Source: Oscillospiraceae bacterium
GTDB lineage: Bacteria > Bacillota > Clostridia > Oscillospirales > Oscillospiraceae
Reading direction: 5' to 3'
Length of the DNA: 64,000 nt
Assembly (NCBI GenBank): GCA_017538965.1
Contig: JAFYHU010000053.1
Location: 4,210-68,209 of the forward strand
Made by a program: the position numbers and the translations under genes. This document shows, piece after piece, positions 4,252 to 55,492 of this stretch. A model generated the notes under the pieces. The model ran no database searches, was not told the origin of the DNA, and saw only the letters and a list, made by a program, of their open reading frames with translations. Within the stretch, counting starts at the first letter, position 1; every line of letters starts with the position of its first letter.

Positions 4252-7200
4252 TTATGTTCTGCTGAGGATGTTTCCGTCTTTGTCGTATTCCACCGCGGCG
4301 AGCAGCCGGCCTTTGCGGTCATAATACCGCACGACGGTCCGGTTTCCGTATGGATCGTAGTCGGTTTCGCAGGACGCATAGCCGCCGTCGTTCGTAATCG
4401 GTTTCCCGTCCCTGCCGAAGTAGCTGGTCCGGATCTCGTTGCCGCGCTCGTCGTATTCCGATTCCAGACCGGCAAAGCCGCCGATGTGGAGACAGGGTTC
4501 TCCGTCGAGGCCGACGAAGCTGACCTTGATCTGGTTGCCGCGCTCATCGTACACCGCATCCCATCCGGCATAGCCGTCCCGGAACAGAACCGGCTGTCCG
4601 TCCGTGCCGAAGTAACGGCAGCGGATCTTCCGATCCCGCCCGTCATATTCAGATTCGCAGGAAGAAAAGCCGTCCGCGTTCAGAACCGCTTCTCCGTCCA
4701 GCCCAAAATAGCTGACTTTGCGTTCGTTGTCCCGCTCGTCGAAAACGGACTCGAAACAGCAGCCGCCGTAATCGTTCAGAACGGGCTTTCCGTCGGTGCC
4801 GAAGATGGTCGTTTTGATGATATTACGGTGCGCGTCATACTCCGACTCAAACCCGGCGTAGCCGTCTGCAGCCAGAACCGGTTTCCCGTCCGTGCCGAGA
4901 TAGGTGAAACGGATCTGGTTGCCGCGCCCGTCATACACCGCGTCCCATCCGGCATAGCCGTCCCGGCTCAGAATCGGCTGCCCGTCGGTCCCGAAATACC
5001 GGAGCCGGGTCTGATTGCCGCGCCCGTCATATTCGGCCTCCTGCCCGGCATAGCCCTCGGCATTCAGGATCGGCCGTCCGTCCGTATCGAAGAAGCGGGC
5101 TTTGATCTGGTTGCCGCGCCCGTCGTATTCAAAAGCCTCCGCGGCATAGCCCCCGGCGCTCAGAGCAGGCTGCCCGTCCGTGCCGAAGTAAGCGCGCCGG
5201 AGCTCATTGCCGTGGGCATCGAAGGCAGAGTCCCACCCGGCCACGCTGTCCCCGTACAGAACCGCTTCGCCGCTCAGGCCGAAGAAGCTGCGCCGGAGCT
5301 CGCTGCCGCGCTCGTCATAGGTCGATTTCCATCCGGCGATGCCGCTTTTATGCAGAACGGCTTCCCCGCCGGTTCCGAAGCAGCGGCATTCCGTCTCGTT
5401 GCCGCGCTCGTCATAGGCATATTCCCATCCGGCGACGCCGTCCGTGTTCAGGACCGGCTGGCCGTCTTTGCCAAAGAAGCCGAGACGGATCTGATTGCCG
5501 CGCTCGTCATACGCCGCGTCCCATCCGGCATAGCCGTACTGACACAGAGCAGGCTGCCCGTCCGTGCCGAAAAAGGCGACCCGGACCTCGTTGCCGCGCT
5601 CGTCGTACACCGCATCCCATCCGGCGATGTCGTCCCGGCTCAGAATCGCTTCTCCGTCCGCGCCGAAATAAGAGCAGCGGATCACGTTGCCGCGTTCGTC
5701 ATAGGCGTAGGTCCATCCGGCGTAGGCATCCTTCATCAGAACAGGCTGCCCGTCCGTGCCGAAGTAGCCGACTCTGACCGGATGACCCCTGTCGTCGAAA
5801 AGCGTTTCCCATCCGGCAATGCCGTCTTCGCTCAGAACCGGCTCGCCGTCCGTGCCGAAGTAAGAGCAGCGGATTTCGTTCCCGCTTTCGTCAAAGACGG
5901 ACTCGTACCCGGCGACGCAGATATCGTGCAGAACCGGATTTCCGTCGGGATCGAAGAAACTGCGCCGGATTTCCCTGCCGTTTTCATCAACCTGAGACTC
6001 CCATCCGGAAATGCCGTCCCGGTGAAAGACCGGCTCTCCGTCCGTCCCGAGGAAGCCGACACGGACCTGATTCCCCCGTGCGTCATAGCGGTTTTCCTGC
6101 GCGGCAAAGCCGAGCTCGGTCAGGAAGGGGCTGCCCTGCGTGTCATAATAGCTTGTTCGGACTTCGTTGTGGTTTTCATATTCAGAAGCCGTGACAGCGC
6201 CGGAGGAGGCGAGGGTGATCAGCTCTCCCTGCGCGTCCAGCATGCGCTGCCCGACGCAGTCGCCGGCGTCGTCATAGAGAAATTCGATGCCGGCCAGGCC
6301 GCTGCGCTTTCCGACCACCCGATAGTTTTCCGCCCTGGTGGCATCCGTGCTGCCGGACGCGACATAGGTGAGATAGAGCAGGCGGATGATGCGGCCCTGT
6401 CCGTCCCGTTCAAAGCGAATCCCGCTGATGCCGTCCGCGTCGTGGGCGGAATGGTTGTAGGCATCGGATGCATAGTGCACTTCAAGCGGAAATCCCGAAG
6501 CGTCATAGGTTACCAGATAGCGGATCACGCTGCTCTTGCGATCCTTTTCCCCGCTGTCGTCTTCCAGCGGATCGACGGTGATGTGCGAAGGCAGAGGCGC
6601 CGCCATCGAGAAGCCCCCGCTTTCCGTCTCCGGATGCCTGGAAAGATCGACGGTGTTCCGGCTGATATAGTGCAGTTCCGTTGCCAGCTGTCCGTTTTCG
6701 TTGTACTGATTGACGCTGGACAGACCGCCGTCGTCCGCATAAACGTACTCCGCCCTGGAAAAGCGGTCGATCCGTGTCGGGTGCGTATCCGGCATGAGCT
6801 TGCCCGCGCTGTTCTCATAACGCAGTTCGCGGACCCTGCCGCGGCTGGACAGCAGGGTGTAGTGCGCGTTCATGGACGGAAGCTCGTTTTCCTTCAGTTC
6901 TCCGATACCCTTCGGAACCCCGTAGACCTCGGTGTAATCCGCATAATACTTCGTTTTCGGCGTATAGTAATCCCAGGCTTTCCACGCGCCCGCCATCACG
7001 ACCAGGGCGAGAAGCGCGGCGGCAAGGCGGTTCTTTCTCCGGCGCCGCAGGTCGTCGCTCTCCAGTTCCTCCCGCCTGATGCCCAGCATGGCGGCGATGA
7101 GGCGCAGCAGAGCGGTGCGCGGCCCGTCGTCGTAGATGCTGACGCCGGCGATGTCCTTCTCTCTGCTCAGCTGCGCCAGATAAGCAGGAAAGCACTCCTC

Positions 7201-7596
7201 CACCGGGTGATCGCTCTTGTCCACGATGAAGGGAATGACGCGGCCGAGATCACCGCTGCCCTCCAGAAAGTACCGCAGTTCGTCGTCCAGGTACCGGGAG
7301 TTCTCCGCGGCTTTCCGGGAGCAGATGACGATCAGGTATCTGGCCGACTGCACTTCGCTGGAAAGGCCGCTGTCCAGCAGCCCCGGGGTCAGATTGGTTT
7401 TGTCCAGAAAGATCGGGCTGCAGCGTTTCTGAACCTGCGGATTCTTTCTGTGGGTTCTCGCGGGCAGGCGGTAATTATGGAGATGCCGCTTGAGCCAGCG
7501 GGCCCATTTTTCGTCCGCACTCTTGTAGCTGATAAAGGCAAAATAGGTATAGTTGTCTGAAGAAGCAGCTGCAGGGGAAACGGGTTCCGAATTCAT
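4252..7596 (-). CDS. TIR domain - single TM helix - about 20 tandem YD/RHS-like repeats (receptor-like membrane protein)
   Basis: The N-terminus YFAFISYKSADEKWARWLKRHL...IFLDKTNLTPG...YLIVICSRKAAENSRYLDDELRYF fits the TIR_2 pattern. RRRRKNR is followed by LAAALLALVVMAGAWKAW (TM helix). Then come ~32-aa repeats with consensus GYAGWDAVYDERGNQIR..YFGTDGQPVL, encoded at about 4255-6190. A GGAGG RBS lies upstream of the ATG at 7596. Confidence 0.8.
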   Translation of the reverse strand: MNSEPVSPAAASSDNYTYFAFISYKSADEKWARWLKRHLHNYRLPARTHRKNPQVQKRCSPIFLDKTNLTPGLLDSGLSSEVQSARYLIVICSRKAAENSRYLDDELRYFLEGSGDLGRVIPFIVDKSDHPVEECFPAYLAQLSREKDIAGVSIYDDGPRTALLRLIAAMLGIRREELESDDLRRRRKNRLAAALLALVVMAGAWKAWDYYTPKTKYYADYTEVYGVPKGIGELKENELPSMNAHYTLLSSRGRVRELRYENSAGKLMPDTHPTRIDRFSRAEYVYADDGGLSSVNQYNENGQLATELHYISRNTVDLSRHPETESGGFSMAAPLPSHITVDPLEDDSGEKDRKSSVIRYLVTYDASGFPLEVHYASDAYNHSAHDADGISGIRFERDGQGRIIRLLYLTYVASGSTDATRAENYRVVGKRSGLAGIEFLYDDAGDCVGQRMLDAQGELITLASSGAVTASEYENHNEVRTSYYDTQGSPFLTELGFAAQENRYDARGNQVRVGFLGTDGEPVFHRDGISGWESQVDENGREIRRSFFDPDGNPVLHDICVAGYESVFDESGNEIRCSYFGTDGEPVLSEDGIAGWETLFDDRGHPVRVGYFGTDGQPVLMKDAYAGWTYAYDERGNVIRCSYFGADGEAILSRDDIAGWDAVYDERGNEVRVAFFGTDGQPALCQYGYAGWDAAYDERGNQIRLGFFGKDGQPVLNTDGVAGWEYAYDERGNETECRCFGTGGEAVLHKSGIAGWKSTYDERGSELRRSFFGLSGEAVLYGDSVAGWDSAFDAHGNELRRAYFGTDGQPALSAGGYAAEAFEYDGRGNQIKARFFDTDGRPILNAEGYAGQEAEYDGRGNQTRLRYFGTDGQPILSRDGYAGWDAVYDGRGNQIRFTYLGTDGKPVLAADGYAGFESEYDAHRNIIKTTIFGTDGKPVLNDYGGCCFESVFDERDNERKVSYFGLDGEAVLNADGFSSCESEYDGRDRKIRCRYFGTDGQPVLFRDGYAGWDAVYDERGNQIKVSFVGLDGEPCLHIGGFAGLESEYDERGNEIRTSYFGRDGKPITNDGGYASCETDYDPYGNRTVVRYYDRKGRLLAAVEYDKDGNILSRT

Positions 7597-7801: not shown

Positions 7802-10800
7802 ATGAAAAAAATCCGGAAACTTCTGGCGCTGACCCTGGTTTTTTGCATGATGACAGCCCTGGGCGTATGGAATACCAGCGCGCAGGCGGACTGGTACACC
7901 GTGACCTTCAATCAGGTGGATAACCGAAAATTTGAAGGCGTGCCGACAGGGGTCACCCCGACGGCTGCGGCGGCGTCCCAGAAGACGGTAATCGGCTCGT
8001 CCTCGAACCTCACGAACGTGGGTCAGATCGAGTATTATTACAATGCCGGAGCGGAAACCCTGATCATCAGCGGCTGGGGTGAAATGCCCGGCTTCGACAA
8101 GGAGCATCCGGCGCCCTGGTTCAGGGAAGCCCGGTGGGCGAAGCGCGTCATCATCGATGAAAGAGTGCTGACCATCTCGAACGAGGCCTTCAAGGACTTT
8201 GAATATCTCCGGAGCGTGGTCTTCCCCTCCACGCTGAAGAAGATCGCAGCGAACTCCTTTGAAAACTGCGAGAAGCTCAAGCGCATCGAAGTCGTCATCA
8301 ACGTGGACGACGCGAAGACCCTGGTCAGGGAGAGCGAAAGCAAGGAGCTGGAGAAGGCCGAGATCGTGCGCGTCACGAGGGACGCCGTCCTGAAGGAGAT
8401 TGAATGGCTGACGACCTACTGGGTGGGAGACTGGGAAGAGATCACCTATGACAAGGCCGGGCGGCCCATCCGCATCATCGAGCATCTGGCGGACGGCAGA
8501 ACCATAGACACGAGAATCAAATATCTGAACCCGGCAACGGCGGCCAACCAGGCGAAGAACGCGAACACCGCCGAGCGGTACTATTCCGTGAAAACCACCA
8601 AGTCAGGCGACAAGACCGCAGCGGAATTGGAGAAGACCGAGTACGGGCAAAACCTGGTCAAAGGCGGATACGAGCTGAACAAGGACGGCCGCCAGGTAAA
8701 GGGCGTTGAAATCACGCAGAACGGGACCGACTCCAACAAGAGAGTCCTGTACAAAGCCAAATACAATGCTGACGGCAGCGGCACCAAGGAATGGGTAGAG
8801 ACGGAACTGGAGAAAGGCACGTTGAACGCAATCACCGAATATACGACGGAAACGGTGGACAAAAACGATAAAGTGAAATCTGCCGAAACCTTGTATCTTG
8901 ACGCGAACGGCGTTCTGCGCGGCTATGCCAAGACGGAAAACGATTATAATAAAGACGGCAATAAGACAAAGACAGACTATTATCAAGTCGATGAAGCCGG
9001 CGCCAAAACAGCCGAAGGGTCAACTTCTTACGATTATGACCCTGCAACGAAACGGCTGACCGGAAAGACCGACACATACACGGAATACCCGGCACAGAAT
9101 AAAAGCAAGAAAACGGAGACTACCAGTGAGTATGGGTATGACAGTAAAGGAAACGTTTCCACGGTGAAAGAGACCGTCACCAATACGGAGAAAAACGGAA
9201 GTACGACGACTACAAAGACAACAGAGACCACAACGAGCTACCAGTATACCGACAAGGGATTAAAGAAAGCATCGACGGAAAAAGTAACATATGTAGAGAG
9301 CGGCAATACGAAAGAAACCACAACCACGTATGATAAAAACGAGCGCCCGGTAAAAGAAGAATCTACAACGAAAAACAGTGCCGGAGACATCCTCCAAACC
9401 GTAACCAATGAGATCAGCTATAATTCCGACCACGTCATATCCAAGAGCGTAAAGACCATAGAAGATGCAAGCGGCACGCATACAGTAACCACGAATTACG
9501 ATAAGGACGGCTGGCCTGTCAAAGAGACGACAGAGGAAAAAGATGAAGACGGGAATCCAACAGGAAGCATTACGAACAGCTATACCTATAACGAAGACGG
9601 AATGCTTACGTCGTCCACACAGGTAGTAAAAGACGATCAGGGGAATACCAAAAAAACCATTAAGGAAGAGACAAAATATGATTCGCTGGGTAGAGTCCTG
9701 AAGTACACGCAGACTACAACCGAAGGCGATAAAACCAAGAGCACAAGCACCACCAAGAGCTATGATTCAGACGGAAGAATTATCACAGAAGATTATGAGA
9801 CCCTTGAGAACGAAACGAAAACCGGAAGCAAAGCGACATATACGTATAACAAAGACGGCAGCTATACCAAAAAAATAACAGATCTCGAAGAAACTGCAAC
9901 CCAGACCAGCGAATACGATGACACAGGAAGAATTACAAAAGAAACTCTTGTAGAGAAAGATGCTGACGGAAATAAAACCGGGACTGAAACGACGTATACC
10001 TATGATGAAGACGGCACCCCTCACACAGAAACAAGAAATCTCACTGAGGAAGAGCTGTCCAACCTGAAAAGTGCTCCAAAAATGATGTTGATGAGCTTCC
10101 GGGCGGCTTCTGACGAAGCCTGTGAGGGAATTTGTGAAGAAACCTGTGAAGAGACCTGTGAAGAGACCTGCGAGAAGCCTGACTATGAGCTGACAGGCAC
10201 AGAAGAAGCGACCTGCGAAGAGCCGGCCTATGAGATCTACAGATGCAAGGGATGCGGCTATGAGTTTAAAAAAGAAGTCGGTGAGCCTCTCGGCCATGAC
10301 TATGAGCTGAAGGAGACCATAGCGGCAACCGAAACGGATCCTGCTTATGAGATTTATATCTGCAAACGCTGCAAGGACGAGATCAGCAAACCCGTAACGG
10401 AAGAGGACAACGAGGACGCTGCCGAGCAGAAAGACCAGGTTTCAGCAGACAGCGGGAAGAAGGAAGATACACCGGCAGATACCGGGAAGAAGGCCGGCGA
10501 GACTCCGACCGGCACTGAGACGAAGGACGCACAGGCCACAGACATCGACAAGACGGATCTGCCGGCAGCGGACACCGGCAAGACAGATGTACCGGCTGCA
10601 GACATCGGCAAGACGGATCTGCCGGCTGCAGACATCGGCAATAAGGCTGCACCGGTGGCAGACCCCGCCAAGACGGATATACCGGCGGCAGACCCCGCCA
10701 AGACGGATGTACCGGCTGCGGACACCGGCAACAAGGCTGCACCGGCGGCAGATACCGGCAATAAGGCCGCACCGGCTGATCCGAAGCCGGCGAACCAGAT

Positions 10801-10903
10801 CCCGGTCGTACCGACTCCTCAAAATACAACTCCAGTGCCGTCCGTTGCTCCGGTGCAAACTGCTTCCGAAAACTCGGTTCCGGAAAACACTGAAGAAGGC
10901 TGA
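7802..10903 (+). CDS. large secreted surface protein: BspA-type LRR, YD-like repeats, Thr/Lys-rich repeats, Cys-rich modules, decapeptide tandem repeats
   Basis: Signal peptide MKKIRKLLALTLVFCMMTALGVWNTSAQA. LRR_5-like segment VIIDERVLTISNEAFKDFEYLRSVVFPSTLKKIAANSFENCEKLKRIEV. YD-like units such as TYDKAGRPIRIIEHLADGRTI and YDKDGWPVKE. Cys-rich modules ATCEEPAYEIYRCKGCGYEFKKEVGEPLGHDYEL. C-terminal KTDLPAADTG repeats. Confidence 0.8.
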   Translation: MKKIRKLLALTLVFCMMTALGVWNTSAQADWYTVTFNQVDNRKFEGVPTGVTPTAAAASQKTVIGSSSNLTNVGQIEYYYNAGAETLIISGWGEMPGFDKEHPAPWFREARWAKRVIIDERVLTISNEAFKDFEYLRSVVFPSTLKKIAANSFENCEKLKRIEVVINVDDAKTLVRESESKELEKAEIVRVTRDAVLKEIEWLTTYWVGDWEEITYDKAGRPIRIIEHLADGRTIDTRIKYLNPATAANQAKNANTAERYYSVKTTKSGDKTAAELEKTEYGQNLVKGGYELNKDGRQVKGVEITQNGTDSNKRVLYKAKYNADGSGTKEWVETELEKGTLNAITEYTTETVDKNDKVKSAETLYLDANGVLRGYAKTENDYNKDGNKTKTDYYQVDEAGAKTAEGSTSYDYDPATKRLTGKTDTYTEYPAQNKSKKTETTSEYGYDSKGNVSTVKETVTNTEKNGSTTTTKTTETTTSYQYTDKGLKKASTEKVTYVESGNTKETTTTYDKNERPVKEESTTKNSAGDILQTVTNEISYNSDHVISKSVKTIEDASGTHTVTTNYDKDGWPVKETTEEKDEDGNPTGSITNSYTYNEDGMLTSSTQVVKDDQGNTKKTIKEETKYDSLGRVLKYTQTTTEGDKTKSTSTTKSYDSDGRIITEDYETLENETKTGSKATYTYNKDGSYTKKITDLEETATQTSEYDDTGRITKETLVEKDADGNKTGTETTYTYDEDGTPHTETRNLTEEELSNLKSAPKMMLMSFRAASDEACEGICEETCEETCEETCEKPDYELTGTEEATCEEPAYEIYRCKGCGYEFKKEVGEPLGHDYELKETIAATETDPAYEIYICKRCKDEISKPVTEEDNEDAAEQKDQVSADSGKKEDTPADTGKKAGETPTGTETKDAQATDIDKTDLPAADTGKTDVPAADIGKTDLPAADIGNKAAPVADPAKTDIPAADPAKTDVPAADTGNKAAPAADTGNKAAPADPKPANQIPVVPTPQNTTPVPSVAPVQTASENSVPENTEEG
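10541..10777 (+). repeat. about eight tandem 30-nt coding repeats (D-x-G-K-T-D-x-P-A-A decapeptide)
   Basis: Units such as gacatcggcaagacggatctgccggctgca recur head to tail with a 30-nt period inside the 7802-10903 CDS. Confidence 0.85.
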
Positions 10904-13872: not shown

Positions 13873-15816
13873 ATGAACGAACAGCCGAAAAACAGAGAAT
13901 GGGTAAAGAACGCCGCGATTGTATTTCTCTCGGTGATTCTTGTGCTGACCTTTTTCTCGAATACCATCATGAACCGCAGCCTCCCCGAGGCGGCGACGCA
14001 GGAAGTCGTGGACGGCAGCATCGTGTCCAAGGTACGCGGCACCGGCACCGTCACGGCAACCGGCAACCACCAGGTGAAGATGGAAAAGACCCGCGTCATC
14101 CGCAGCGTGCTGGTGAAAGCCGGCCAGGAAGTCGCGGCCGGCGACGTGCTGTTCACCCTCGGCGAAGGCAGCAGCGATGAAATTGCTGAAGCCGAATTAA
14201 AGGTTCATAGCCTGCAGAGCTCATACAACCGCCAAGCGGCTACCAGCGGAGTATATTCCTATTCAGCCGCGGAAAACAACCTGAGTATTCTTGGTGATAG
14301 GCTGGATGAAGCAACAGAAGCAATGCTCATTGCAAAAGAGGAAGCAGAAAAAGAAGTTCAAGATCAGGAACAACTTGAAGTTATAAAAGAAAAGTTGGAA
14401 AAAGCGATTAAAGCACGTGACGAAGCAAAAGATCATTATGATCAAGTGGTTATTGAACAAGCGGGATATGAAGAACTGCAATCTCTAAAAGAAGCATTGG
14501 CAGATATCTATACAGACCTTGTAACTCAAGGATTGATTGACGGAGATCTTGTGGAATCTACTTATCTTTCAGAAAGAGAAATCATTCTTGAACAGATAAC
14601 AAGAGATGAAAAGGAACTGATGGATCTGGGAAGCCTAGAAGATCCTGCATCAACAACAGATATAGAAGAATTAAGGGCACAGGCAGCACAAGCTCGGTTA
14701 GATGCGGAAGCCCTAAGAGATGAAGGCAGGGATGAAGAAGCTGTCCTTAAAGAACAAGAAGCTGAAGATTTAGAAGCATCAATTGCCGAATATGAGGAAA
14801 AGCAGATAGAATATGAGGAAAAGACAGAAATAGAAGAAGAGCTTAAAGGCAAAATAGAGATATTGAAAGACGCACTGGCAGAGCATGATAGGATACAAAG
14901 AGAGGTATATGACACAGAACAGAAAAATGAAAAAGTAAATGCAGCAAAAAACGAGTATGAATCATCACTGGAAGATGTGGACAGATGGAGTGAGGCACTT
15001 AATTCTATTTTGAGTTATGCTACCGATGGGTACTACAACGAAGTCTATAAAAATAAGCTGGAAGCCTATAGACAGGCAAATATCAACTATCAGGATGCAC
15101 GCGATGCTTTAGATCGAAGAAAAGCGGAAGATGCCCAATCGCAGGCTGCGAAAGGCGTTGACCTCAACCAGATAAAGTACGAAATAGAGGCAGCCAAGAA
15201 GAAATTGGATGAGTTAACGGGCGAAGATGGTGCAATTATTACTGCCAAGGTGGCGGGCACGGTGACTTCGGTCGAGTGTACCGCGGGCGACAAGAAGATG
15301 AAGGACGATGTCCTCTGCACGATTGAAGTCCCCGATATGGGCTATACCATGTCCTTCTCGGTGACCAACGAGCAGGCCAGCCGCCTGCGCATCGGCGATC
15401 AGGCGACTGTATCGAACTTCTACTGGGGCAACGAGGTCACGGCCACCCTCAGCAGCATCAAGACCGACCCCAAGAAGGCTCAGAGCAACAAGCTGCTGAC
15501 CTTCGACCTCGAGGGCAACGTGACGACCGGCTCGGAGCTGACCATCTCGGTCGGACAGAAGAGCGCCAACTATGACCTGATCGTCCCGAGCAGCGCGATC
15601 CGCTCGGACGCCAACGGCAGCTTCGTTCTGAAGGTCGAGGCGAAGAACTCGCCGCTGGGCAACCGCTATATCGCCAAGCGCGTGCCGGTCGAAGTGCTGG
15701 CGAGCGACGACAACAACTCGGCCGTGACCGCCGAGCTGCAATACGGCGACTATGTCATCACGACCAGCAGCGCGCCCATCAAGAGCGGCTCGATGGTGCG
15801 CCTTGCCAGCTCGTAA
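13873..15816 (+). CDS. HlyD/MFP-family periplasmic adaptor with a very long coiled-coil insert
   Basis: N-terminal TM segment, then a lipoyl-like hairpin VRGTGTVTATGNHQVKMEKTRVIRSVLVKAGQEVAAGDVLFTL. A Glu/Lys-rich coiled coil of roughly 350 aa follows. The second lipoyl half is ITAKVAGTVTSVECTAGDKKMKDDVLCTI, followed by a beta-barrel C-terminus. Confidence 0.7.
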   Translation: MNEQPKNREWVKNAAIVFLSVILVLTFFSNTIMNRSLPEAATQEVVDGSIVSKVRGTGTVTATGNHQVKMEKTRVIRSVLVKAGQEVAAGDVLFTLGEGSSDEIAEAELKVHSLQSSYNRQAATSGVYSYSAAENNLSILGDRLDEATEAMLIAKEEAEKEVQDQEQLEVIKEKLEKAIKARDEAKDHYDQVVIEQAGYEELQSLKEALADIYTDLVTQGLIDGDLVESTYLSEREIILEQITRDEKELMDLGSLEDPASTTDIEELRAQAAQARLDAEALRDEGRDEEAVLKEQEAEDLEASIAEYEEKQIEYEEKTEIEEELKGKIEILKDALAEHDRIQREVYDTEQKNEKVNAAKNEYESSLEDVDRWSEALNSILSYATDGYYNEVYKNKLEAYRQANINYQDARDALDRRKAEDAQSQAAKGVDLNQIKYEIEAAKKKLDELTGEDGAIITAKVAGTVTSVECTAGDKKMKDDVLCTIEVPDMGYTMSFSVTNEQASRLRIGDQATVSNFYWGNEVTATLSSIKTDPKKAQSNKLLTFDLEGNVTTGSELTISVGQKSANYDLIVPSSAIRSDANGSFVLKVEAKNSPLGNRYIAKRVPVEVLASDDNNSAVTAELQYGDYVITTSSAPIKSGSMVRLASS

Positions 15817-21822: not shown

Positions 21823-22056
21823 GTGGAAAACTCAAAAATCAGCCGTATCAACGAACTGGCCAGACTCGCGAAGGAGCGGGAACTGACGGCCGAAGAACTG
21901 GCGGAGCGGGACGCGCTCCGGAAAGAATATATCGCCGAGTGGCGCCGCGGCGCCGAGCAGGTGCTGGATAACACCTATGTGATCGGGCCGGACGGCGTCA
22001 AGCGGAAACTGGAAAAGAAGAGAAAAGAAGAAGGAGCGGACGGCAAGGCGGAATGA
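21823..22056 (+). CDS. DUF896 (YnzC/UPF0291) family small protein
   Basis: ISRINELARLAKERELTAEELAERDALRKEYIAEWRRG is the characteristic DUF896 pattern. GTG start. Confidence 0.75.
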   Translation: MENSKISRINELARLAKERELTAEELAERDALRKEYIAEWRRGAEQVLDNTYVIGPDGVKRKLEKKRKEEGADGKAE

Positions 22057-23420
22057 AACCGCAAAACGGGGATAACACAAGCACGCGCGACATGACCCAA
22101 GGGCCGATCCTGCGGCAGCTGATTGCCTTTTCTCTGCCGCTGATGCTGGGGAATGTCTTTCAGCTGCTGTACAACACCGTGGACTCGATCATCGTCGGGA
22201 ACTTCGTCAGCAAGCAGGCGCTGGCAGCGATCGGCTCGACGACGGTGATTGTAAACATGCTGGTCTTTTTCTTTGCGGGATTTGCCATCGGCGCCGGGGT
22301 GGTCATCGGCAACAGCTTCGGAGCGAAAAACATGGAGCGCCTGCACGACGCCATCCACACGACCGTCGCCGCCACCTTTATCCTGAGCCTTCTGCTCACG
22401 GGGCTGGGCGTTGCGACGGTGAAGCCCATGCTGGTCCTCATGCATACGCCGGACGACGTCTTTCAGGATGCCGCGCTGTATCTGCGCATTTACATCGGCG
22501 GCATCTCCGGCCTGCTGATTTACAATATGGGCAGCGGCATCCTGCGCGCGGTGGGAGATTCGGTCCGCCCGCTGGGCTTTCTGATCCTGACCAGCATCCT
22601 GAACATCCTGCTGGACCTCTTTTTCGTGCTGGTGCTGAAGACGGGCATCGCCGGTGCCGCGATCGCGACGATCCTCTCGCAGTTTGTCTCCGCGACGCTG
22701 ACCCTGTTGCTCCTGACACGGACAAAGGACATCTATCGCCTGAACTGGAAAGAGCTGCGCATCGATTTTTCGATCCTGAAAAGGATCTTTGCCATCGGCA
22801 TGCCCGCGGCGCTGCAGACGGTGATCACGTCCTTTTCCAATATTTTTGTGCAGGGATACATCAACGTCTTCGGCTCTGACGTGATGGCGGGCTGGAGCAG
22901 CTATAACAAGCTGGATTACTTTATTTTTCTGCCGATGCAGAGCATGTCCATGGCCTCCACGACCTTTGTCAGCCAGAACACCGGCGCGGGCAACGAGCAG
23001 CGAAGCCGGCAGGGGACGGTGACTGCGATCGGGATGACCGCCGTGGTCACGGGCGCGGTCGCGGCGGTGCTGACAGCCTTTGCGCCCGAAGCGGTGCGCC
23101 TGTTTTCCCCGGATGAGGCGGTGATCCGCTACGGCGTTATGTTCATCCGCACCAACGCCTTCTTCCTGCTGTTCAACGGCGTCGCCCAGGTGCTGGCGGG
23201 GGCTCTGCGCGGTCGCGGCGATTCGCGCGGGCCGATGATCATCATGCTTCTGAACTTTGTGCTGCTTCGGCAGATCTACCTGTTCTGGGTGACGCACTGC
23301 GTGGCGAACACGCCGCAGCTCGTCGGTCTCGGCTATCCGGTGGGCTGGGTGTGCTGCTGTGTGACGGAAGTGATTTACGCCCTGGTCCGGCAGCGCCGGC
23401 GGACGGAACTCCGGCAATGA
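22053..23420 (+). CDS. MATE family efflux transporter
   Basis: ILRQLIAFSLPLMLGNVFQLLYNTVDSIIVGNFVSKQALAAIG is the canonical MATE N-terminus, and the protein has 12 TM helices. The start could instead be the internal Met at 22092. Confidence 0.85.
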   Translation: MKPQNGDNTSTRDMTQGPILRQLIAFSLPLMLGNVFQLLYNTVDSIIVGNFVSKQALAAIGSTTVIVNMLVFFFAGFAIGAGVVIGNSFGAKNMERLHDAIHTTVAATFILSLLLTGLGVATVKPMLVLMHTPDDVFQDAALYLRIYIGGISGLLIYNMGSGILRAVGDSVRPLGFLILTSILNILLDLFFVLVLKTGIAGAAIATILSQFVSATLTLLLLTRTKDIYRLNWKELRIDFSILKRIFAIGMPAALQTVITSFSNIFVQGYINVFGSDVMAGWSSYNKLDYFIFLPMQSMSMASTTFVSQNTGAGNEQRSRQGTVTAIGMTAVVTGAVAAVLTAFAPEAVRLFSPDEAVIRYGVMFIRTNAFFLLFNGVAQVLAGALRGRGDSRGPMIIMLLNFVLLRQIYLFWVTHCVANTPQLVGLGYPVGWVCCCVTEVIYALVRQRRRTELRQ

Positions 23421-23450
23421 AAAAGGGGCTGTATCACAATGTCGAATTTA

Positions 23451-23703
23451 GCTCCCAATCAGGTTGTACCGTTTCGCGGCCAGGGAAAATACAGCCCCTG
23501 ACTGACCAACTTCTGCCGCGAATAAAAAAACCGATGGAAAGCCCAACAAAGTGGGTTTCCATCGGCAGCGACGAGCAGCGAAATAAGCGAGCTTTCCCGA
23601 CACTTCGGGGAAGCGAGACGATATGTAGCTTGTGAGGAGCCAGCGCGGCGGAGAAACCTGAGTGCGAGATACCGGTTTCTCTTCCGCGCAATTGCAGAAA
23701 GCT
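23451..23703 (+). repeat. unclassified structured intergenic element, copy 1 (candidate ncRNA or MITE-like element)
   Basis: Aligns by hand along its whole length with the reverse complement of 44153-44424. Shared blocks are gctcccaatcagg, gcccctgac, ccgatggaaagccc, cgacgagcagcg, agcttg.gaggagccagcgcggcg and cgcgcaattgcag. Two hairpins are conserved through compensatory or wobble changes. Indels break every reading frame between the copies. Confidence 0.7.
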
Positions 23704-23758
23704 GTGAACGGGGTTGTCCAAAATATTGAGACAGCCCCTTTTTATTACAGGCAGGGGC

Positions 23759-26700
23759 TTATCTTCTGTATTCCGAATCGTAGCGGTTTCCGTAGGTGAT
23801 CCGGATGAGGTTCCAGACATAGTTGTATGAGGCCGTCCCGGGCTGGAAGGCATTGCGGTTCTGGTAAGCGACATAGCCAATGCTGCGCTGCACCGCGCCG
23901 CCGTAGATAATAATCTGATCTCCGCTGCCGCTGAGGATCATGTAGGAGCGCATGACCAGGTCGCGCGGCACCTGTTCGTCGGTGAAGCCGACCAGAACGT
24001 TGGTGTATTGGGACATGCCGTTTACCGTCTTGAACACGGGGTCGGCCGTATTCCGCTTGTAGGCGTAGTTCGAGAATCGCTTGTTCTCCCAGGTCAGATC
24101 GCGGCCGTTCAGTTCGTCGGCCCAGCCGACAATCGTGCCGTATTCCTCCAGCGTGTAGCCGGCAAGACCGCTTGAGGTCAGGGCGTTCTTCAGCTCGGTC
24201 GGCACCGAGGTGATCATGCGGATGCCTTTCTTGCCGGTGATGCGGATCGAGAAGCCGGAATAGCGCATGATGTTGTCCAGAGCCGGAATCCGCTCGGCGG
24301 TCTTCGTACCGCCGGATTCCCTGACGACCCAGACCTTCAGGTCGGTGGGATACTGCGTATGCACGTCGTCGCTGCTGCCGGTGTACTGAAACGATTCGAT
24401 CACCTTGACGGAGGTTCCGGCCGGGATAACGACGGTGCCGTCATCGTTCACCTCGCAGGTGACGCCGTCCGCGGAAACGGTGCGGGTCGGGACTTCGGAG
24501 GTCGCAATCGTGATCACGGGCTGCCAGACGGCATAGAGCGTGATTGTGCTGCCGTTGTTGCTTCCGTTCTCGTTGAATCTGCTGCCGGCGGGATAGATGG
24601 TTCCGGTCCCGTCGGCGTTGGTCGACCAACCCCGGAAGACATAAGCGTCCCGGACCGGTTCGACGGTGGAGAGCCAGATGGGAATATACCGAGTCTTGTT
24701 CTCCGTTCCCTGCGGCCCGCCGGTTCCGCCGTTGGCGTTATAGGAAACTGTATAGGTGCTGAAGCTGACGATAATATTCAGGGAATCGGATTTGCCTCCG
24801 TCCTGCGTCTTTACGGTGAGTATTGTCTCGCCGTTGCCTTGAATCCGCCCGAGGCCGCTGGCGCTGTTGACCGTCATCACGTCAGGCTTGCTGCTCTCCC
24901 AGAAGACGGTTTTGTTGGACGGTTTTTCCGGCAAAATCGTATAACTGAAGCTGATTTTCGTTTCCGAGGTCACGTCAAAGCCAGAGGAAGCGCCTTCGAA
25001 GGAAGCATCATCAAAGGTAAAGAAATCCGTGTTGTGCGTTGTTTTGTAGTTTATCCCGATGCTCTCCACCGAAGTGCCGCCGACCGTCACCGTACAGGTC
25101 ACGGATAGTTCTCCTGCCCTGGCGGTGATCGTCGCGGTACCCGGAGAGACGCCCGTGACCACGCCGTTCTCGACCGACGCGATATCCCTGTTGTCGCTGG
25201 TCCAGCTGACCATCCTGTTGCTTGCGTCAGCAGGCGTTACGGTCGCCGTCAGCTTTTCGGAGGCGCCGCATTCGACAGAAAGGGAATAGTCGGTTGCGCT
25301 GCCCGCTTCATTTTCCCTAAGCGCGCTGCTGCCGGACAGGGTCAAGCCGGAAACGGCAGTCGGGGTGCCGGCGGAGGAACCCTCGACTGTGTAGAGCTTG
25401 ATTCTGGCGTCGCGCTCGGTTCTTGTTTCTCCGATGGTATAACCGCCGCCGTCACAGCTTGCGGTATATTTGATTTTGTTGGCGAAGGTGGAATCGATAT
25501 TCGGTTTGCCTTCCACGGCAACCGTGGCCGGCGAACCGAACGAGAGCGTAACCGTGGCGGTATCGCCTTTTGCGGCGGCAAGCGGGCTGTTCAGAGGAAC
25601 ATAGTAGAAGCCGGCAAAGCTGGTATAACAGTTTCCGGAAGAACTCCTGTCCCCGACGGTCACGGTCACCGTTGCGGCGAGATCGGTGCTGTAGGTTTCA
25701 AAGCCGACGGCTTTGATGGTCTCGTGATCGACGATGGTAAAGCTCTGGCTGATGCCCTGATTGGCGTCCAGATCAACCCGCCCGGCGGGATAGGGGATGC
25801 TGTCGTGGGCATAGCAGTAATCAAAGTCTCTGGATTCCGCGTCATAAGCCGTAATCACATCGCTGAGAAGGCTTTCGTCATAGTATGAAATCCAGAAGTA
25901 GCCATTATAGCCGTAATTGTTCAGGCCCCAGCTGTTGCGTACCAGCCAGGCGCCGTCTCCCGGCGGAGTTCCCTCAGAGAAATGCTCCGCGGGGAAGTCG
26001 TCTTTCCAGCCTACCAGCATCACCTCGTGGTTGGTGCCGGCCACATCACAGTAATAAGAGTTATAGGTGGAGCTGTAGTAGTAGCCGGAGGCAAAGAAGG
26101 CGGCGTCTACACCGCCGTGATTCCGGATGGCGGATTTGATGGCGGCATTGTCGTTGGGGTTGATCAGATAAGCGCCGGTCACCTGATACTTCGGCGTGCC
26201 GCCGGGGCTGCCGTAGGGGTAAGGGGCGTCGCTCTCGTTCACGGGGCCGATGCCGTTTGCCAGCGTGCGGTAGGCGATCTCGTTGTTGCCGCCGTTGGAG
26301 AGATAGTTGTTTCCGGAATAAGTGATGTTATCTTCGGTCTGATTCCGCAGGCCGGTATATTTGTGCGCGGAGTAATAGGTCAGATACAGCTCGGACAGAT
26401 CGATGGAGGGGTTGCCGGTCTCCTTGATCAGATCCGCCTCGACCGAACCGATGTTGCCGAAGGCCCAGCAGGCGCCTTCGGCGCCTTGGTCGCGGACCGG
26501 CGGAAGCTGACTGTCCGTAATTTTGCCGCCCTCAAAGGTAAACGGAATGTATTCTCCGGAGCCGCGCATCTTCATGGCGCTGCCGACCAGGGGGACCTCG
26601 CCGATCTCGGAGGGAATATGGCCGCCGGTCTCGCCTTCGAGGAGTTCGCCGACCTGCACCTGCAGCGTCGGCAGAGTCAGACCGGGGGCCAGATTCCAAT

Positions 26701-27916
26701 CGTCCAGCTCGGGGACGAAATCAAAGAAGGCCAGGTCTTTATCGTAATCCTCCGTGCATTTCCAGGTGACGGGATAGCTTTTTTCGGCGGCGTCGGAAAC
26801 CGCGCTGATCACGTCTCTGCCGTCCTCGTCCTTTTCATAGAGGACCGTTCCGCCGAGGCAGAAGGTGATTTCCTTTGGGAAGAAGCTTTCCAGCACGATG
26901 AGCGCGGGCTTGTCCTTCTGTGTGATTGTTTCCGGCTCGGGACCGGCGAATCCGGTGACGACGTCCTCCTTGAATTCGCGCAGATCCGCCTTCAGGGAGA
27001 CTTCGTCGGTCAGGACGGAAGTCTCTCCCGCGGTGATGCGGCAGCGATAAACACAGTTGGCAGCCTCCTGCGCGGCGGCAGGATCGGTCAGGCCGGTCAG
27101 GCGGAGCTTGCTGTCGGCTTCGTCGGCAATATCCGTCCAGGCTGCTTCCCGATCCTTGTATTCCTGCGAAGCATCCAGACGCTGCCACTGCAGGGAGAGC
27201 GCCGTTCCTTCGGGCGAGACGGAAGCAGAGACGGAGAACTCGGCCTCGCCGTTTCTGATCTCCGCGTCGGCGGGCTGCGCGGAAACGGTAATCTCGGGTT
27301 TCTCCTCTGCGACTGCGTCTTTGGTGATTTCCGCGCTGCCGGGAGGATAGATGATTTCACAGCCGGACAGAACTTCTTCGCAGACAGCGCAGACCGTACC
27401 GGCTTTGTGCCCGGGTTTGGTCTTCGTGGCGGGGACTTCGTCAACTTCCTTTGGCGTGTGGCCGAGCGGATCGGTCAGGTCGTCTTCTTTCTCTTCCTCG
27501 CAGCGGGAACAGGTATAAAGAGTGTAGCCGCCTTTCGTGCAGGTGGCAGGAACCGCCTCCCCGGCGACCCAGTCATGTCCGAGCGGATCGGTCAGGTCGT
27601 CTTCTTTCTCGTCATTGCAGAGGGAACAGGTATAGAGAGTATAGCCGCCTTCCGTGCAGGTGGCAGAAACCGTATCTCCGGCAACCCAGTCATGGCCGAG
27701 CGGATCGGTCAGGTCGTCTTCTTTCTCGTCATTGCAGAGGGAGCAGGTATAGAGAGTATAGCCGCCTTCCGTACAGGTGGCGGGAACCGTCTCCCCGGCG
27801 ACCCAGTCATGATCACAGGCGGATTCTTCGCCCTCGGCCAGGGCCCTGGACGGGAGCAGGGAAAAGAGCATGGTCAGCGCCATGAGAACAGAAAGAATGC
27901 GATTTTTCGTTGTCAC
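23759..27916 (-). CDS. giant cell-surface papain-like (C1) cysteine peptidase with Cys-rich repeats, Big_2 and Listeria-Bacteroides repeat domains
   Basis: Start trimmed to GTG 27916 (GGAGG upstream), giving a signal peptide VTTKNRILSVLMALTMLFSLLPSRALA. Three CDHDWVAG..ATCTEGGYTLYTCSLCNDEKEDDLTDPLGH modules. C1 active-site region QGAEGACWAFGNIGSVEADL. Big_2-like segment VSWTSDNRDIASVENGVVTGVSPGTATITARAG. Flg_new-like segment YTVSYNANGGTGGPQG...FRGWSTNADGTGTIYPAGS...LYAVW. Confidence 0.8.
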   Translation of the reverse strand: MTTKNRILSVLMALTMLFSLLPSRALAEGEESACDHDWVAGETVPATCTEGGYTLYTCSLCNDEKEDDLTDPLGHDWVAGDTVSATCTEGGYTLYTCSLCNDEKEDDLTDPLGHDWVAGEAVPATCTKGGYTLYTCSRCEEEKEDDLTDPLGHTPKEVDEVPATKTKPGHKAGTVCAVCEEVLSGCEIIYPPGSAEITKDAVAEEKPEITVSAQPADAEIRNGEAEFSVSASVSPEGTALSLQWQRLDASQEYKDREAAWTDIADEADSKLRLTGLTDPAAAQEAANCVYRCRITAGETSVLTDEVSLKADLREFKEDVVTGFAGPEPETITQKDKPALIVLESFFPKEITFCLGGTVLYEKDEDGRDVISAVSDAAEKSYPVTWKCTEDYDKDLAFFDFVPELDDWNLAPGLTLPTLQVQVGELLEGETGGHIPSEIGEVPLVGSAMKMRGSGEYIPFTFEGGKITDSQLPPVRDQGAEGACWAFGNIGSVEADLIKETGNPSIDLSELYLTYYSAHKYTGLRNQTEDNITYSGNNYLSNGGNNEIAYRTLANGIGPVNESDAPYPYGSPGGTPKYQVTGAYLINPNDNAAIKSAIRNHGGVDAAFFASGYYYSSTYNSYYCDVAGTNHEVMLVGWKDDFPAEHFSEGTPPGDGAWLVRNSWGLNNYGYNGYFWISYYDESLLSDVITAYDAESRDFDYCYAHDSIPYPAGRVDLDANQGISQSFTIVDHETIKAVGFETYSTDLAATVTVTVGDRSSSGNCYTSFAGFYYVPLNSPLAAAKGDTATVTLSFGSPATVAVEGKPNIDSTFANKIKYTASCDGGGYTIGETRTERDARIKLYTVEGSSAGTPTAVSGLTLSGSSALRENEAGSATDYSLSVECGASEKLTATVTPADASNRMVSWTSDNRDIASVENGVVTGVSPGTATITARAGELSVTCTVTVGGTSVESIGINYKTTHNTDFFTFDDASFEGASSGFDVTSETKISFSYTILPEKPSNKTVFWESSKPDVMTVNSASGLGRIQGNGETILTVKTQDGGKSDSLNIIVSFSTYTVSYNANGGTGGPQGTENKTRYIPIWLSTVEPVRDAYVFRGWSTNADGTGTIYPAGSRFNENGSNNGSTITLYAVWQPVITIATSEVPTRTVSADGVTCEVNDDGTVVIPAGTSVKVIESFQYTGSSDDVHTQYPTDLKVWVVRESGGTKTAERIPALDNIMRYSGFSIRITGKKGIRMITSVPTELKNALTSSGLAGYTLEEYGTIVGWADELNGRDLTWENKRFSNYAYKRNTADPVFKTVNGMSQYTNVLVGFTDEQVPRDLVMRSYMILSGSGDQIIIYGGAVQRSIGYVAYQNRNAFQPGTASYNYVWNLIRITYGNRYDSEYRR
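27462..27812 (-). repeat. three tandem 117-nt coding repeats (39-aa Cys-rich module)
   Basis: ccgagcggatcggtcaggtcgtcttctttctc recurs at 27462, 27579 and 27696, an exact 117-nt period. Confidence 0.9.
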
Positions 27917-28054
27917 GGCGAAGACCCTCCTTCCGTCAAGAATACGGACATTTTTGCACACACTTATCCATTTTATAGACTGTTGCTATTTTACCACCGG
28001 AAGAGGGCACCGTCAACCGCAGAGCAGGCGTTTCCAGACAAGAAACACAAAAAA

Positions 28055-28326: not shown

Positions 28327-28731
28327 CTACACGGGAATGATGCATTTTTCATCGAAAAGAGGAATCATTCTGTCATGCGTGATCAGGCGGAAGCTTTCTG
28401 CTTTTGCCTGGGCAAGAAGGAGACGGTCATAAGGATCTTTGTGCACTTCGCCGCTGCCGCCCCATTTGAGAGCGTTTTCGGCTAAAAAATGCCTGGAATG
28501 CAGAGGAAGCTGAATGTACCCGGCGGCTTCGCAGCTTTCAATAAATTCCGCAGTAGTGAATTCCAGATTGTTGTTCCTGCTCTTTCGTTTGTTGTTAACC
28601 TCCAGGGTGGAGACGGCGCTGACGTAAATGTTGTTGTCGGCATCCAGGATGATTTCTCTCGCCTTTTCAGAAAGTCGAGGATCGTCCGTAATCGCCCAGA
28701 CGGCTATGTGTGTATCAAGCAGAATGTTCAT
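28327..28731 (-). CDS. vapC: PIN-domain type II toxin VapC
   Basis: MNILLDTHIAVWAITDDPRLS...YVSAVSTLE...HKDPYDRLLLAQAKAESFRLITHD carries the PIN acidic residues and matches the VapC pattern. Confidence 0.85.
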   Translation of the reverse strand: MNILLDTHIAVWAITDDPRLSEKAREIILDADNNIYVSAVSTLEVNNKRKSRNNNLEFTTAEFIESCEAAGYIQLPLHSRHFLAENALKWGGSGEVHKDPYDRLLLAQAKAESFRLITHDRMIPLFDEKCIIPV

Positions 28732-28970
28732 AACGTACCCTCTGACAGCAGTGCCGCAGCTTCTTCGCCGGCGGCATCGAAATCATCGGGCGCTCTGAAT
28801 TTCCCCCTGGCAATTCCGATTCTTTTCGAAACAACAGGCTGATCAATCAATACGATTTTCACAACCGGTTTTCCATTTCTGGCCACCGTGATGGAATCTT
28901 CCATCCCGGATTCAAGGATACGGATCAGTTTGGAAAAACCGGTTTTCGCTTCCAGGACATTGACTTGCAT
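28728..28970 (-). CDS. Phd/YefM-type antitoxin
   Basis: MQVNVLEAKTGFSKLIRILESGMEDSITVARNGKPVVKIV is a Phd/YefM-like N-terminus. There is a 4-nt overlap with vapC. Confidence 0.8.
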   Translation of the reverse strand: MQVNVLEAKTGFSKLIRILESGMEDSITVARNGKPVVKIVLIDQPVVSKRIGIARGKFRAPDDFDAAGEEAAALLSEGTL

Positions 28971-33254: not shown

Positions 33255-34250
33255 ATGAAGAAAAAGCTTTTGATAATCCTGATGATCGCGGGGATGGTCC
33301 TCTGCCTCAGTGCCTGTGCCAATTCCTGCAGCAAGGCCGAGCCGGAGGCGAGCCCCGCACCGGAGGCAAGCGCCGTTCCGGAAGAGAGCGCTGCGCCGGA
33401 AGAGAGCGCCGCGCCGGAAAGCCCGGCCCCGACTCCCGAACCGACGCCCGAACCCACGCCGGAGCCGACCCCGGAACCCACGCCCGAGCCCACACCGGAA
33501 CCAACACCGGAACCCACACCGGAGCCGACCCCCGAGCCGGAGCCCGAAGCCGAGCCTGAGCCGGAACCGGAACCGGAACCGGAGCCGGAACCCGAACCGG
33601 TTTCCGCGCTGTCTCCGGAGGAACAGGCCTATCAGGAAGCCGAACGGCTGCTCTATGTCGATGCGGACTACGACGGCGCCTTCCGGCTGCTTCAGGGCTG
33701 GACCGACACGGACTACACGCCGCTGCAGGCCCTGATCGGGGAATGCTATCGCCACGGATACGGGACCGGAGTCGACGACAAGCTCGCCTATGATTACTAT
33801 AAGCGGGCGGCAAAGCAGAATGACGCGATCGGCCTGTTCGGCGTCGCGACAAGCATCCGCAGCGGCTACGGCGTTCCGAGAAACCAGGAATACGGAACCG
33901 CGCTTCTCTGGGATGCCATGGCGGCTTCTCTGAAAGCGGCGGAACAGTCGGAGGACCCGATCGAGCAGGGAAGGCTGTATTTCCAGGTCGGCTATCCGAA
34001 GCTTTTCTACATGTGCAGCCTGAAATCGGAACACGAGGAAGCGTATAAGCTCCTGCAGAAGAGCGCGGACTGCGGCTATCCGCTGGCGGAATACCATGTG
34101 GGCCGGATGCTGAAGGGAGAAGAAACCTTCAACTGGTTCTGGCAGCCGCTTCAGTACCTGCCCGAGAAGGACGAGGCGCTGGGCGATCAGTATCTCGAGC
34201 TTGCCCGGCAGCACGGCATTGACATCACGGCAAAACTCACAGACAGGTAA
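33255..34250 (+). CDS. lipoprotein with a Pro/Glu/Thr linker and Sel1-like repeats
   Basis: Start trimmed to ATG 33255. Lipobox CLSAC. (TPEP)n/(EPEP)n linker. SLR motifs include [35 protein letters not shown] and [14 protein letters not shown]. Confidence 0.75.
33427..33600 (+). repeat. low-complexity coding tandem repeat (12-nt TPEP units, then 6-nt EP units)
   Basis: ccgac(g/c)cc(c/g)ga(a/g)cc units are iterated. This also generates the spurious GSGV/RFRF antisense ORFs. Confidence 0.85.
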
Positions 34251-44138: not shown

Positions 44139-44152
44139 GTTGCCCGATCGAA

Positions 44153-44424: not shown

Positions 44425-44463
44425 ATGGAAATAAACATCAAGTCAAGTATTGGAGAGTAAACC

Positions 44464-53509: not shown

Positions 53510-53595
53510 GCCGGCGTGGTGGAATGGTAGACACCAGGGACTTAAAATCCCTTGCAGGCAACTGCGTACCCGTTCGAGTCGGGCCGCCGGCACCA
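53510..53595 (+). tRNA. tRNA-Leu (anticodon UAA), CCA encoded
   Basis: Hand fold. Acceptor gccggcg/cgccggc. A 3-bp D stem with gaatggtaga loop. Anticodon stem aggga/tccct with loop cTTAAaa. Long variable arm tgcag-gcaa-ctgcg. T loop ttcgagt. Discriminator a followed by cca. Confidence 0.85.
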
Positions 53596-55164: not shown

Positions 55165-55165
55165 C

Positions 55166-55489: not shown

Positions 55490-55492
55490 CCC

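Follow-up and report, generated by a model that had tools for sequence, protein, structure and literature searches.

The two window copies and their surroundings

The window, i.e. the whole stretch of 64,000 nucleotides that was analysed, comes from an uncultured rumen-type Oscillospiraceae whose species is not among the GTDB representatives; the nearest representative is RUG282, with a MalQ protein 90% identical. Two of its intergenic spacers each contain a copy of the same structured element. Copy 1, on the plus strand, lies between two convergent genes encoding a MatE efflux protein (22053–23420, plus strand) and a 1400-aa Peptidase_C1/Big_2 surface protein (23759–27961, minus strand). Copy 2, on the minus strand, lies between a PfkB kinase gene (43185–44138, plus strand) and the GH77 gene malQ (44464–45963, plus strand), and is antisense to both. 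Eight metagenome contigs from the same species, four carrying copy 1 and four carrying copy 2, were found; seven are identical to the window and the eighth differs by a single base. An earlier reading of the sequence had noted that no transposase, RT, TnpB or IscB gene lies near either copy, and this is the case.

Several other features were recorded in the window. An AAA_14/DUF4143 ATPase gene (53739–54983) is surrounded by two direct repeats of about 150 nt (53593–53744 and 55015–55167; 94–97% identical, 1422 nt apart), each with a strong hairpin, AACAGATCCGAACC...GGTTCGGATCTGTT, and a T-run after it; the arrangement could represent a small cassette, or a region with terminator and promoter that has been duplicated. 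Coding sequences contain four sets of tandem repeats: a 96-nt period (4343–6147) within the gene at 4252–7596 (minus strand), a 30-nt period (10463–10792) within the gene at 7802–10903 (plus strand), three 117-nt units (27459–27811) in the gene for the 1400-aa peptidase/surface protein, and a 12-nt Pro/Glu/Thr-rich period (33417–33596). Two tandem paralogues on the minus strand (46012–47952 and 48327–50075) are 72–79% identical over long stretches, the first being annotated as Transglut_core in ENA. The gene calls of same-species contigs indicate two toxin–antitoxin-like pairs: a PIN-domain protein with a small upstream ORF (~28327–28970, minus strand) and an HTH protein with HipA (Couple_hipA/HipA_C; ~55280–56770, plus strand).

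The original prediction described a structured intergenic element, present in two inverted copies and matching over its full length between 23451–23703 (plus strand) and the reverse complement of 44153–44424. A MAFFT alignment of 23401–23760 (plus strand) with the reverse complement of 44100–44480 reproduced this match, with all the identical blocks listed earlier and several indels, including one of 21 nt just 5' of the first hairpin (H1); the identity of about three quarters estimated by eye corresponds to a mean column identity of about 77%. The homology reaches slightly further 3' than first stated, to about 23714 in copy 1 and 44142 in copy 2. Copy 1 matched the same-species contigs bearing copy 2 with 70.5% identity over 288 nt (BLASTN, E = 4e-34), and the match between the two copies is not, therefore, due to chance. 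Both copies are intergenic and structured, as proposed.

Each copy consists of a 5' arm, hairpin H1, a long irregular hairpin (H2ext) and a 3' tail. The 5' arm of copy 1 (23451–23530, plus strand), delimited by alignment with copy 2, has an internal hairpin (TCAGG...CCTGA), and its segment CTGCCGCG (23513–23520) has a predicted pairing partner, CGCGGCGG, in the tail; the helices of the arm are supported by only two to three sequences. H1, found in both copies as claimed, was identified from the sequence and the fold; it occupies 23531–23565 in copy 1, with 10 bp, a bulged G and a further 3 bp, and 44323–44289 on the minus strand in copy 2, in which the G-U wobble is present and the distal pair changes from A-U to G-C. 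The second hairpin, H2, was also correctly described, with two adjacent compensatory pairs (C-G to U-A and G-C to C-G) between the copies (23591–23614 vs 44262–44239, minus strand), but it is merely the tip of the 73-nt H2ext (23568–23640 in copy 1). Four helices make up H2ext in copy 1, all on the plus strand: Pa (23568–74 with 23634–40), Pb (23575–79 with 23628–33), Pb2 (23583–85 with 23622–24) and the tip Pc (23591–23614), set apart by tandem G·A/A·G motifs. The minimum-free-energy fold of copy 1 agrees with this structure, and H2ext scores 104.9 bits with the covariance model R1, which was built on 68 distinct copies (alignment A4). The tail of copy 1 (23641–23714, plus strand; CAGCGCGGCGG...GTGCGAG...CCGCGCAATTGCAG...CGGG) can be aligned with that of copy 2 and with two other loci, L256 and L263. 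In copy 2, on the minus strand, the corresponding parts are the 5' arm (44324–44425, including the 21-nt insertion relative to copy 1), H1 (44289–44323), H2ext (44214–44285, tip hairpin 44262–44239; R1 101.1 bits) and the tail (44142–44213). A search with R1 found only these two copies in the window, the next best match scoring 12.8 bits; the claim of two copies thus holds for the window but not across genomes, in which many more exist.

Copy 1 is enclosed by a perfect inverted repeat (13/13) with an A-run and a T-run, the halves of which, AAAAAGGGGCTGT (23421–23433, plus strand, read in the sequence) and ACAGCCCCTTTTT (23731–23745, plus strand, from the sequence and the fold), lie 297 nt apart and pair as the outermost helix in the minimum-free-energy fold of 23415–23750. 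As copy 2 has no such stem, the stem belongs to the insertion site rather than to the element, and its sequence suggests a bidirectional terminator that received the element in its loop and was thereby split. On the minus strand of copy 1, H1 is followed by T7 (23530–23521), giving a hairpin with a U-run (-24.1 kcal/mol, z = -4.5) that, according to this folding prediction, may act as a terminator-like signal for the convergent peptidase gene; individual copies may, in this way, have local side effects. The closed multi-helix fold predicted for the whole window element (z = -7.3) and the presence of ACAGCCCCTTTTT 3' of copy 1 on the plus strand would be consistent with each copy being a separate gene, with a promoter and a terminator of its own, for a small RNA of about 260 nt in a multi-copy family of trans-acting sRNAs. 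This seems very improbable, however, given that no sigma-70-like promoter was found at either window copy, that copy 2 has no terminator in its own orientation, that conservation across the family does not extend to the 5' arm or the tail, and that other family members are located inside other genes and RNAs. The label "novel ncRNA or MITE" was in the right neighbourhood, but neither half of it fits as stated, because there are no target-site duplications, no promoter-like site and no sign of a discrete ncRNA gene.

No excision product or exact-junction empty site was recovered for either window copy. MatE orthologues were searched for an empty copy 1 site, and the nearest species (82% aa identity) has different neighbouring genes. 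None of 80 related species has the conserved part of the element upstream of malQ, and copy 2 is therefore a lineage-specific gain; in RUG282 (locus L131), the same PfkB–malQ spacer contains an inverted copy of the tail alone. BLASTN searches of plasmid and phage collections yielded no match to the element.

A dispersed module with changing partners

A locus from another species (L170) matches the element partially: the middle is conserved, and H2 carries a third set of compensatory changes. Two sequences were rejected as probes for the collection of further copies: the 17-mer GAGGAGCCAGCGCGGCG, which occurs in at least 117 unrelated GC-rich genomes, none matching the element, and a two-block pattern from the tail, which gave five chance matches only. 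A pattern derived from the invariant blocks (GCAGCG-N7-11-GCTTTC-N12-GGAAGC-N8-16-AGCTTG) was used to scan 185,579 species genomes and returned 79 loci, 75 of them in about 42 MAGs of Oscillospiraceae, 'Ruminococcaceae' or other Clostridia and four in unrelated phyla, the latter being chance matches. The hosts are MAGs from the rumen and from rabbit, chicken and human gut, with up to five pattern loci per genome. R1 detected 122 copies, many of them diverged, in the pattern-derived loci, and five copies, i.e. about one per 250 kb, in 1.28 Mb of sequence from 80 related genomes, sampled without bias. The module has about 10 copies per genome in uncultured rumen and gut Oscillospiraceae, all the genomes being MAGs, for which copy numbers and absences are approximate. 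Two viral contigs from IMG/VR also carry it.

The widespread unit is 115–118 nt long and contains two different hairpins. The window copies are mosaics in which this module is joined to a 5' arm and to a rarer tail module of about 70 nt. In about 2.4 Mb of related loci, nhmmer found the 5' arm nowhere but in the two copies of the window; a search for the tail located it only in the window (twice), L256, L263 (twice) and L131, RUG282 and RUG13498 being the only hosts of the tail outside the window species. The single unit of about 260 nt described at first is, therefore, shared by the window pair, but is a composite of arm, module and tail. Other subfamilies have other tails, diverged inverted modules with H1 as a common tip, or terminator-like hairpins, in composite units of about 290–420 nt that recur in unrelated flanks, and near-identical composite copies are found in unrelated flanks within a single MAG. 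It was considered whether one subfamily ('tail a') might be the orthologous leader of one gene, but this was rejected, the neighbours differing at every locus. A small hairpin motif, ATGCCCYGTAAGGGA, is conserved in intergenic positions in two species (L131, ~9950–9975; L170, ~14770–14790) and may, judging from its sequence, be another member of the set of hairpin modules.

Inverted doublets are also present, in which weaker inverted copies abut strong ones with H1 in common, and the composite forms a long hairpin (-131.7 kcal/mol). REP, BIME and REPIN elements are extragenic palindromes that may stand alone, be grouped in mosaic clusters or be arranged as inverted doublets, for which long hairpins in single-stranded DNA or mRNA are predicted; they are non-autonomous and moved in trans (PMC3116915). 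The inverted pairs of modules, with H1 as the hairpin tip and the whole doublet forming one long hairpin, resemble this organization, as do the mosaics with other hairpins. The REP unit is, however, an imperfect palindrome of only about 20–40 nt, whereas the module, at about 115 nt, has two unlike hairpins and the arms of its doublets are distinct sequence variants rather than copies of each other. No RAYT gene was found in the sequences searched: no transposase-like ORF recurs near the copies, and an approximate IS200 TnpA query gave no tblastn match in about 2.4 Mb of related loci.

Enterobacterial RU elements are small, non-coding, structured and multi-copy; they are co-transcribed with their neighbours and are sometimes found inside genes (PMC2759123). 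The module shares its small size, non-coding nature, structure and multiple copies with these elements (RU-1/2/3), and with Correia, ERIC/IRU and pneumococcal BOX/RUP elements. Classical MITEs have terminal inverted repeats and generate target-site duplications, whereas no target-site duplication was found for the module, and its two ends, unrelated to each other, gave no clear terminal inverted repeats. In 64 copies, the longest word shared by the 14-nt flanks averaged 3.0, vs 3.03 +/- 0.10 for mismatched flanks, and the start of H1, at one end of the module, is not an inverted repeat of ...GAsGACG at the other. In one composite subfamily, the ends are alike at about 15 of 18 positions by eye, but the right end forms a hairpin of its own. 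Neither BLASTN of plasmid and phage collections nor the genes near the copies revealed a parent IS, and no transposase-like gene recurs near the roughly 120 copies.

Fold and covariation of the module

The module begins with H1, which is followed by a purine-rich linker (gAgAGGAsGA) and by H2ext. H1 is a hairpin of 12–16 bp in 64–65 of 68 copies and belongs to at least three unrelated sequence classes. The 73-nt H2ext comprises the helices Pa, Pb (with one bulged U), Pb2 and Pc and is capped by a tetraloop. The non-canonical motifs between the helices are nearly invariant. G49·A117 is found in 67 of 68 copies and A50·G116 in 66, G68·A95 in 62 and A69·G94 in 67; G52·A114 with A53·G113 is present in 43–44 of the 68 copies, almost all the others having Watson–Crick pairs. 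G59·A106 and A61·G104 flank a variable pair, and A65·A100 is another of these nearly invariant motifs.

The compensatory changes proposed from the window pair were borne out by larger sets of 68 and 90 copies, in both of which covariation was strong and above that of shuffled alignments. In the MAFFT alignment of 68 copies, 87.9% of the cells at paired positions could pair, vs 74.8% in shuffles, and the covariation value was 0.336, vs 0.112 in shuffles, with none of 500 shuffles reaching as high a value and controls with a slid register giving 0.08 or less. Up to four types of Watson–Crick pair occur at a single position (CG in 31 copies, GC in 29, AU in five and UA in one for pair 51–115; CG in 37 and UA in 28 for pair 67–96). 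Some columns of the 68-copy set are invariant because they were fixed by the search pattern, and the count was, therefore, repeated on 90 copies aligned with the model: 21 of the 24 pairs change on both sides, including pairs fixed by the pattern, and the covariation was about 0.54, vs about 0.18 in shuffles, in an alignment that was fitted to the structure of the model and hence leans towards it.

The fold belongs to one strand, the one first proposed (plus for copy 1 and minus for copy 2), because G·U pairs exceed A·C pairs across the family by 181 to 18 (113 to 18 if one pair fixed by the pattern is left out), and because folding energies are lower for the module strand of the window copies (-49.9 and -49.6 kcal/mol) than for the opposite strand (-39.6 and -35.8 kcal/mol). 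The pairing pattern itself would fit either an RNA or a single-stranded DNA as the form in which the folded strand acts.

The fold matches no Rfam family, in line with the first reading, in which no known RNA family was recognized. A search of the whole window with Rfam 15 (4227 covariance models) gave nothing at the gathering threshold, and only chance-level matches were obtained for copy 1 at E <= 10; in 18 related loci, Rfam models detected tRNA, RNase P, T-box, lysine riboswitch, 6S and L10 leader sequences, but never the module. Self-cleaving ribozymes, riboswitches, T-boxes, retron msr/msd and omega-RNA were considered and rejected, as there was neither an Rfam match nor a consistent gene partner. 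The large structured RNAs ROOL, GOLLD, OLE, raiA and HEARO resemble the module in having a structure supported by covariation, in their clostridial, rumen or phage settings and in their proximity to tRNAs. Most of these RNAs are encoded by genes present once; the module, by contrast, is a dispersed repeat also found inside other genes and without a match in Rfam. A search of the literature, which was not exhaustive, found no description of the module family.

The covariation of the module is strong, and its nearly invariant non-canonical motifs are typical of RNA tertiary or protein-binding motifs. The module might, on this basis, be a functional cis-acting RNA domain that has been grafted onto many transcripts (precursors of tRNAs, RNase P RNA, leaders and trailers of mRNAs) and kept by selection at each site, mobility serving for delivery only. 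Its role could be to bind proteins (as a G·A-rich, kink-turn or loop-E-like platform), to stabilize RNA or to signal processing. This explanation, the main alternative, is given a minor but appreciable weight, and the places in which copies are found bear on it in both directions.

Insertion sites and mode of spread

Most copies are intergenic, including copies in mRNA leaders and trailers; some lie 3' of phage capsid and terminase genes, in prophage-like contexts, and others 5' of greA. The genes adjoining the copies are functionally unrelated, which argues against a functional domain selected at each site. Between co-directional neighbours, 24 copies lie on the same strand as the genes and 16 on the opposite strand, counts that are not independent and were obtained with a gene caller trained on ENA gene calls; there is no clear orientation bias relative to host genes. 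The same 16 of 40 informative copies, among them window copy 2, are antisense to both neighbours, which is again difficult to reconcile with a domain acting within transcripts. One composite subfamily, in contrast, is always located about 60 nt upstream of a start codon on the same strand, as would be expected of such a domain.

The tRNA operon Gly-Arg-His-Gln-Lys is orthologous in four species (L224 1743–2827; L216, L264 and L277). Its Arg–His spacer has a length of 6 nt in one species and of 159 or 263 nt in others, and its Gly–Arg spacer a length of 37, 60 or 141 nt, the longer spacers being those that carry module copies. These copies are found in both orientations, and the 3' CCA of a tRNA is the exact starting point of diverged copies on the opposite strand. 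A canonical copy precedes tRNA-Lys, ending 3–4 nt before it, in all four of these diverged species and with compensatory differences between them. The retention of this pre-tRNA-Lys copy in four species, and the fact that high-scoring copies in tRNA operons are on the sense strand while the antisense ones are diverged, are in favour of a selected RNA domain.

Another copy is contained in a class A RNase P RNA (L288 38–511; 474 nt, 237 bits) of the Lapin-008_bin48 MAG, in which the tip of P12 is replaced by an insert of 135 nt with the module, vs 12 nt in the model. The module is on the sense strand of this RNA, which also fits a cis-acting domain. Short tandemly repeated repetitive sequences were reportedly described by Vioque in 1997 in the same helix, P12, of the RNase P RNA of heterocystous cyanobacteria. 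Both cases involve a genome-wide repeat tolerated at the P12 tip of a class A RNase P RNA; the cyanobacterial inserts, however, are tandem repeats of a heptanucleotide, whereas the insert found here is one folded module of about 115 nt.

A protein-coding gene has also received the module. The gene for a 520-aa large serine recombinase (L275 3752–5314, minus strand) reads through it in frame, on the opposite strand, which adds about 37 residues near the C-terminus (GVLTSC..FDGNPE); an insert-free homologue, WP_025436591.1, has a 27-aa gap exactly at the position of the module. This recombinase gene is multi-copy in the MAG RGIG3778 and is also found at L235, L225, L269, L271 and L278. At a GC content of 56.5%, spurious ORFs abound, and long ORFs reading through the module are uninformative by themselves; the recombinase was accepted after the comparison with its homologue. 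An insert that is antisense and translated counts against an RNA domain acting in cis.

The module also resembles the Rickettsia palindromic elements (RPEs), interspersed repeats of 100–150 bp that occupy intergenic regions but also lie in frame within protein-coding genes and have proliferated in particular lineages (PMC1779305). The module has a comparable length (about 115 nt), is mostly intergenic and is also translated in frame, in the serine recombinase, and in neither case is there an associated transposase. The likeness is one of size and placement: the RPEs are from Alphaproteobacteria and the module is from Bacillota, and, given this difference in phylum, homology to RPE-1 to RPE-8 is unlikely. 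Only one protein family with an insert was seen here, and the tandem G·A architecture, the strand-specific use of G·U, the mosaicism and the sites in RNase P RNA and tRNA spacers are features that set the module family apart.

In at least 11 cases, the 3' end of the module (GACG) abuts the stop codon of a convergent gene; all three codons, TGA, TAA and TAG, are represented, and the stop codon must, therefore, belong to the gene and not to the module. The same end also abuts tRNA 3' CCA ends, or is separated by 2–4 nt from a start codon or from the 5' end of a tRNA. Precise, one-sided abutment of this kind, together with strand-specific hairpins, the absence of target-site duplication and a variable sequence just 3' of the module, recalls the ends of IS200/IS605 elements. 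The module could, on these grounds, be an orphan omega-RNA/reRNA scaffold or the remnant of an IS200/IS605 or IS607 end, moved, in the manner of a PATE, by a distant HUH (Y1) transposase. This origin is highly doubtful, as no TnpA, TnpB or IscB gene lies next to any of the roughly 120 copies, the genes flanking the window copies encode MatE, Peptidase_C1/Big_2, PfkB and GH77 proteins rather than the tnpB or iscB that accompanies an OMEGA scaffold, and there was no match to omega-RNA or HEARO in Rfam. The hairpins at the two ends of IS200/IS605 elements resemble each other, moreover, whereas H1 and H2ext are unlike. A tblastn search for an IS200-type TnpA in about 2.4 Mb of related loci also returned no match, the search being weak and the query sequence approximate.

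The presence of the module varies between species at orthologous sites: it spreads to new sites within and between genomes, including those of phages, and is tolerated almost anywhere that a folded insert does no harm. The window elements probably belong, and this is held with moderate confidence, to an undescribed family of non-autonomous, REP/RPE-like mosaic repeats in which the fold of one strand is under selection. The family core would be the unit of about 115 nt, formed by H1 and a 73-nt H2ext in which four short Watson–Crick helices are split by tandem G·A/A·G motifs. This core would join partners (diverged inverted modules, subfamily tails or terminator-like hairpins) to give the longer units of about 260–420 nt, the window copies being one such subfamily. 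The fold of one specific strand would be what is copied or recognized, with mobilization in trans through a single-stranded intermediate, either single-stranded DNA, as for REP/RAYT and IS200/IS605, or RNA. Recognition of a strand-specific fold would explain why the structure is kept by compensatory changes while the orientation relative to host genes is not. To our knowledge, how RPE-type elements move is still not known. Several observations run counter to an interpretation as mobile repeats. No mobilizing enzyme turned up near the copies or in about 2.4 Mb of related loci, target-site duplications are absent, and neither window copy yielded an excision product or an exact empty site. The retention of the pre-tRNA-Lys copy fits a selected RNA function in place at least as well as selfish spread, and the exact abutment of many copies to stop codons, tRNA ends and start codons is not explained by random insertion.

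A bolder proposal, regarded as rather unlikely, would combine spread with function: a mobile RNA domain whose G·A-rich fold is selected at the RNA level, for instance because RNA-binding proteins (of the L7Ae family or others) dock on it or because it serves as a signal for processing or stability, and which has been added repeatedly to tRNA precursors, to RNase P RNA and to the ends of mRNAs. If this were true, the spread of the module would rewire RNA metabolism in these bacteria. In a more radical version, spread through an RNA intermediate would make the module a bacterial SINE-like element.

Most of what is known of interspersed structured repeats (REP, BIME, RPE and MITEs, for example) comes from Proteobacteria and from a few pathogens. 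The module family, on the interpretation as REP/RPE-like mosaic repeats favoured here, is carried by abundant uncultured rumen and gut Oscillospiraceae, and its presence in dozens of species, with several subfamilies, provides unusually rich comparative data. Its modules can mimic terminators and novel ncRNAs, and can lengthen RNase P RNA and protein genes in MAGs, which calls for caution in annotation. A precise fold, with four G·A motifs, emerges from the covariation, and the insertion places are informative: the P12 tip of RNase P RNA, tRNA spacers, an open reading frame and phage genomes. The family is, thus, a tractable case in which to find out what is selected in such repeats, the fold of the DNA or RNA or a function for the host.
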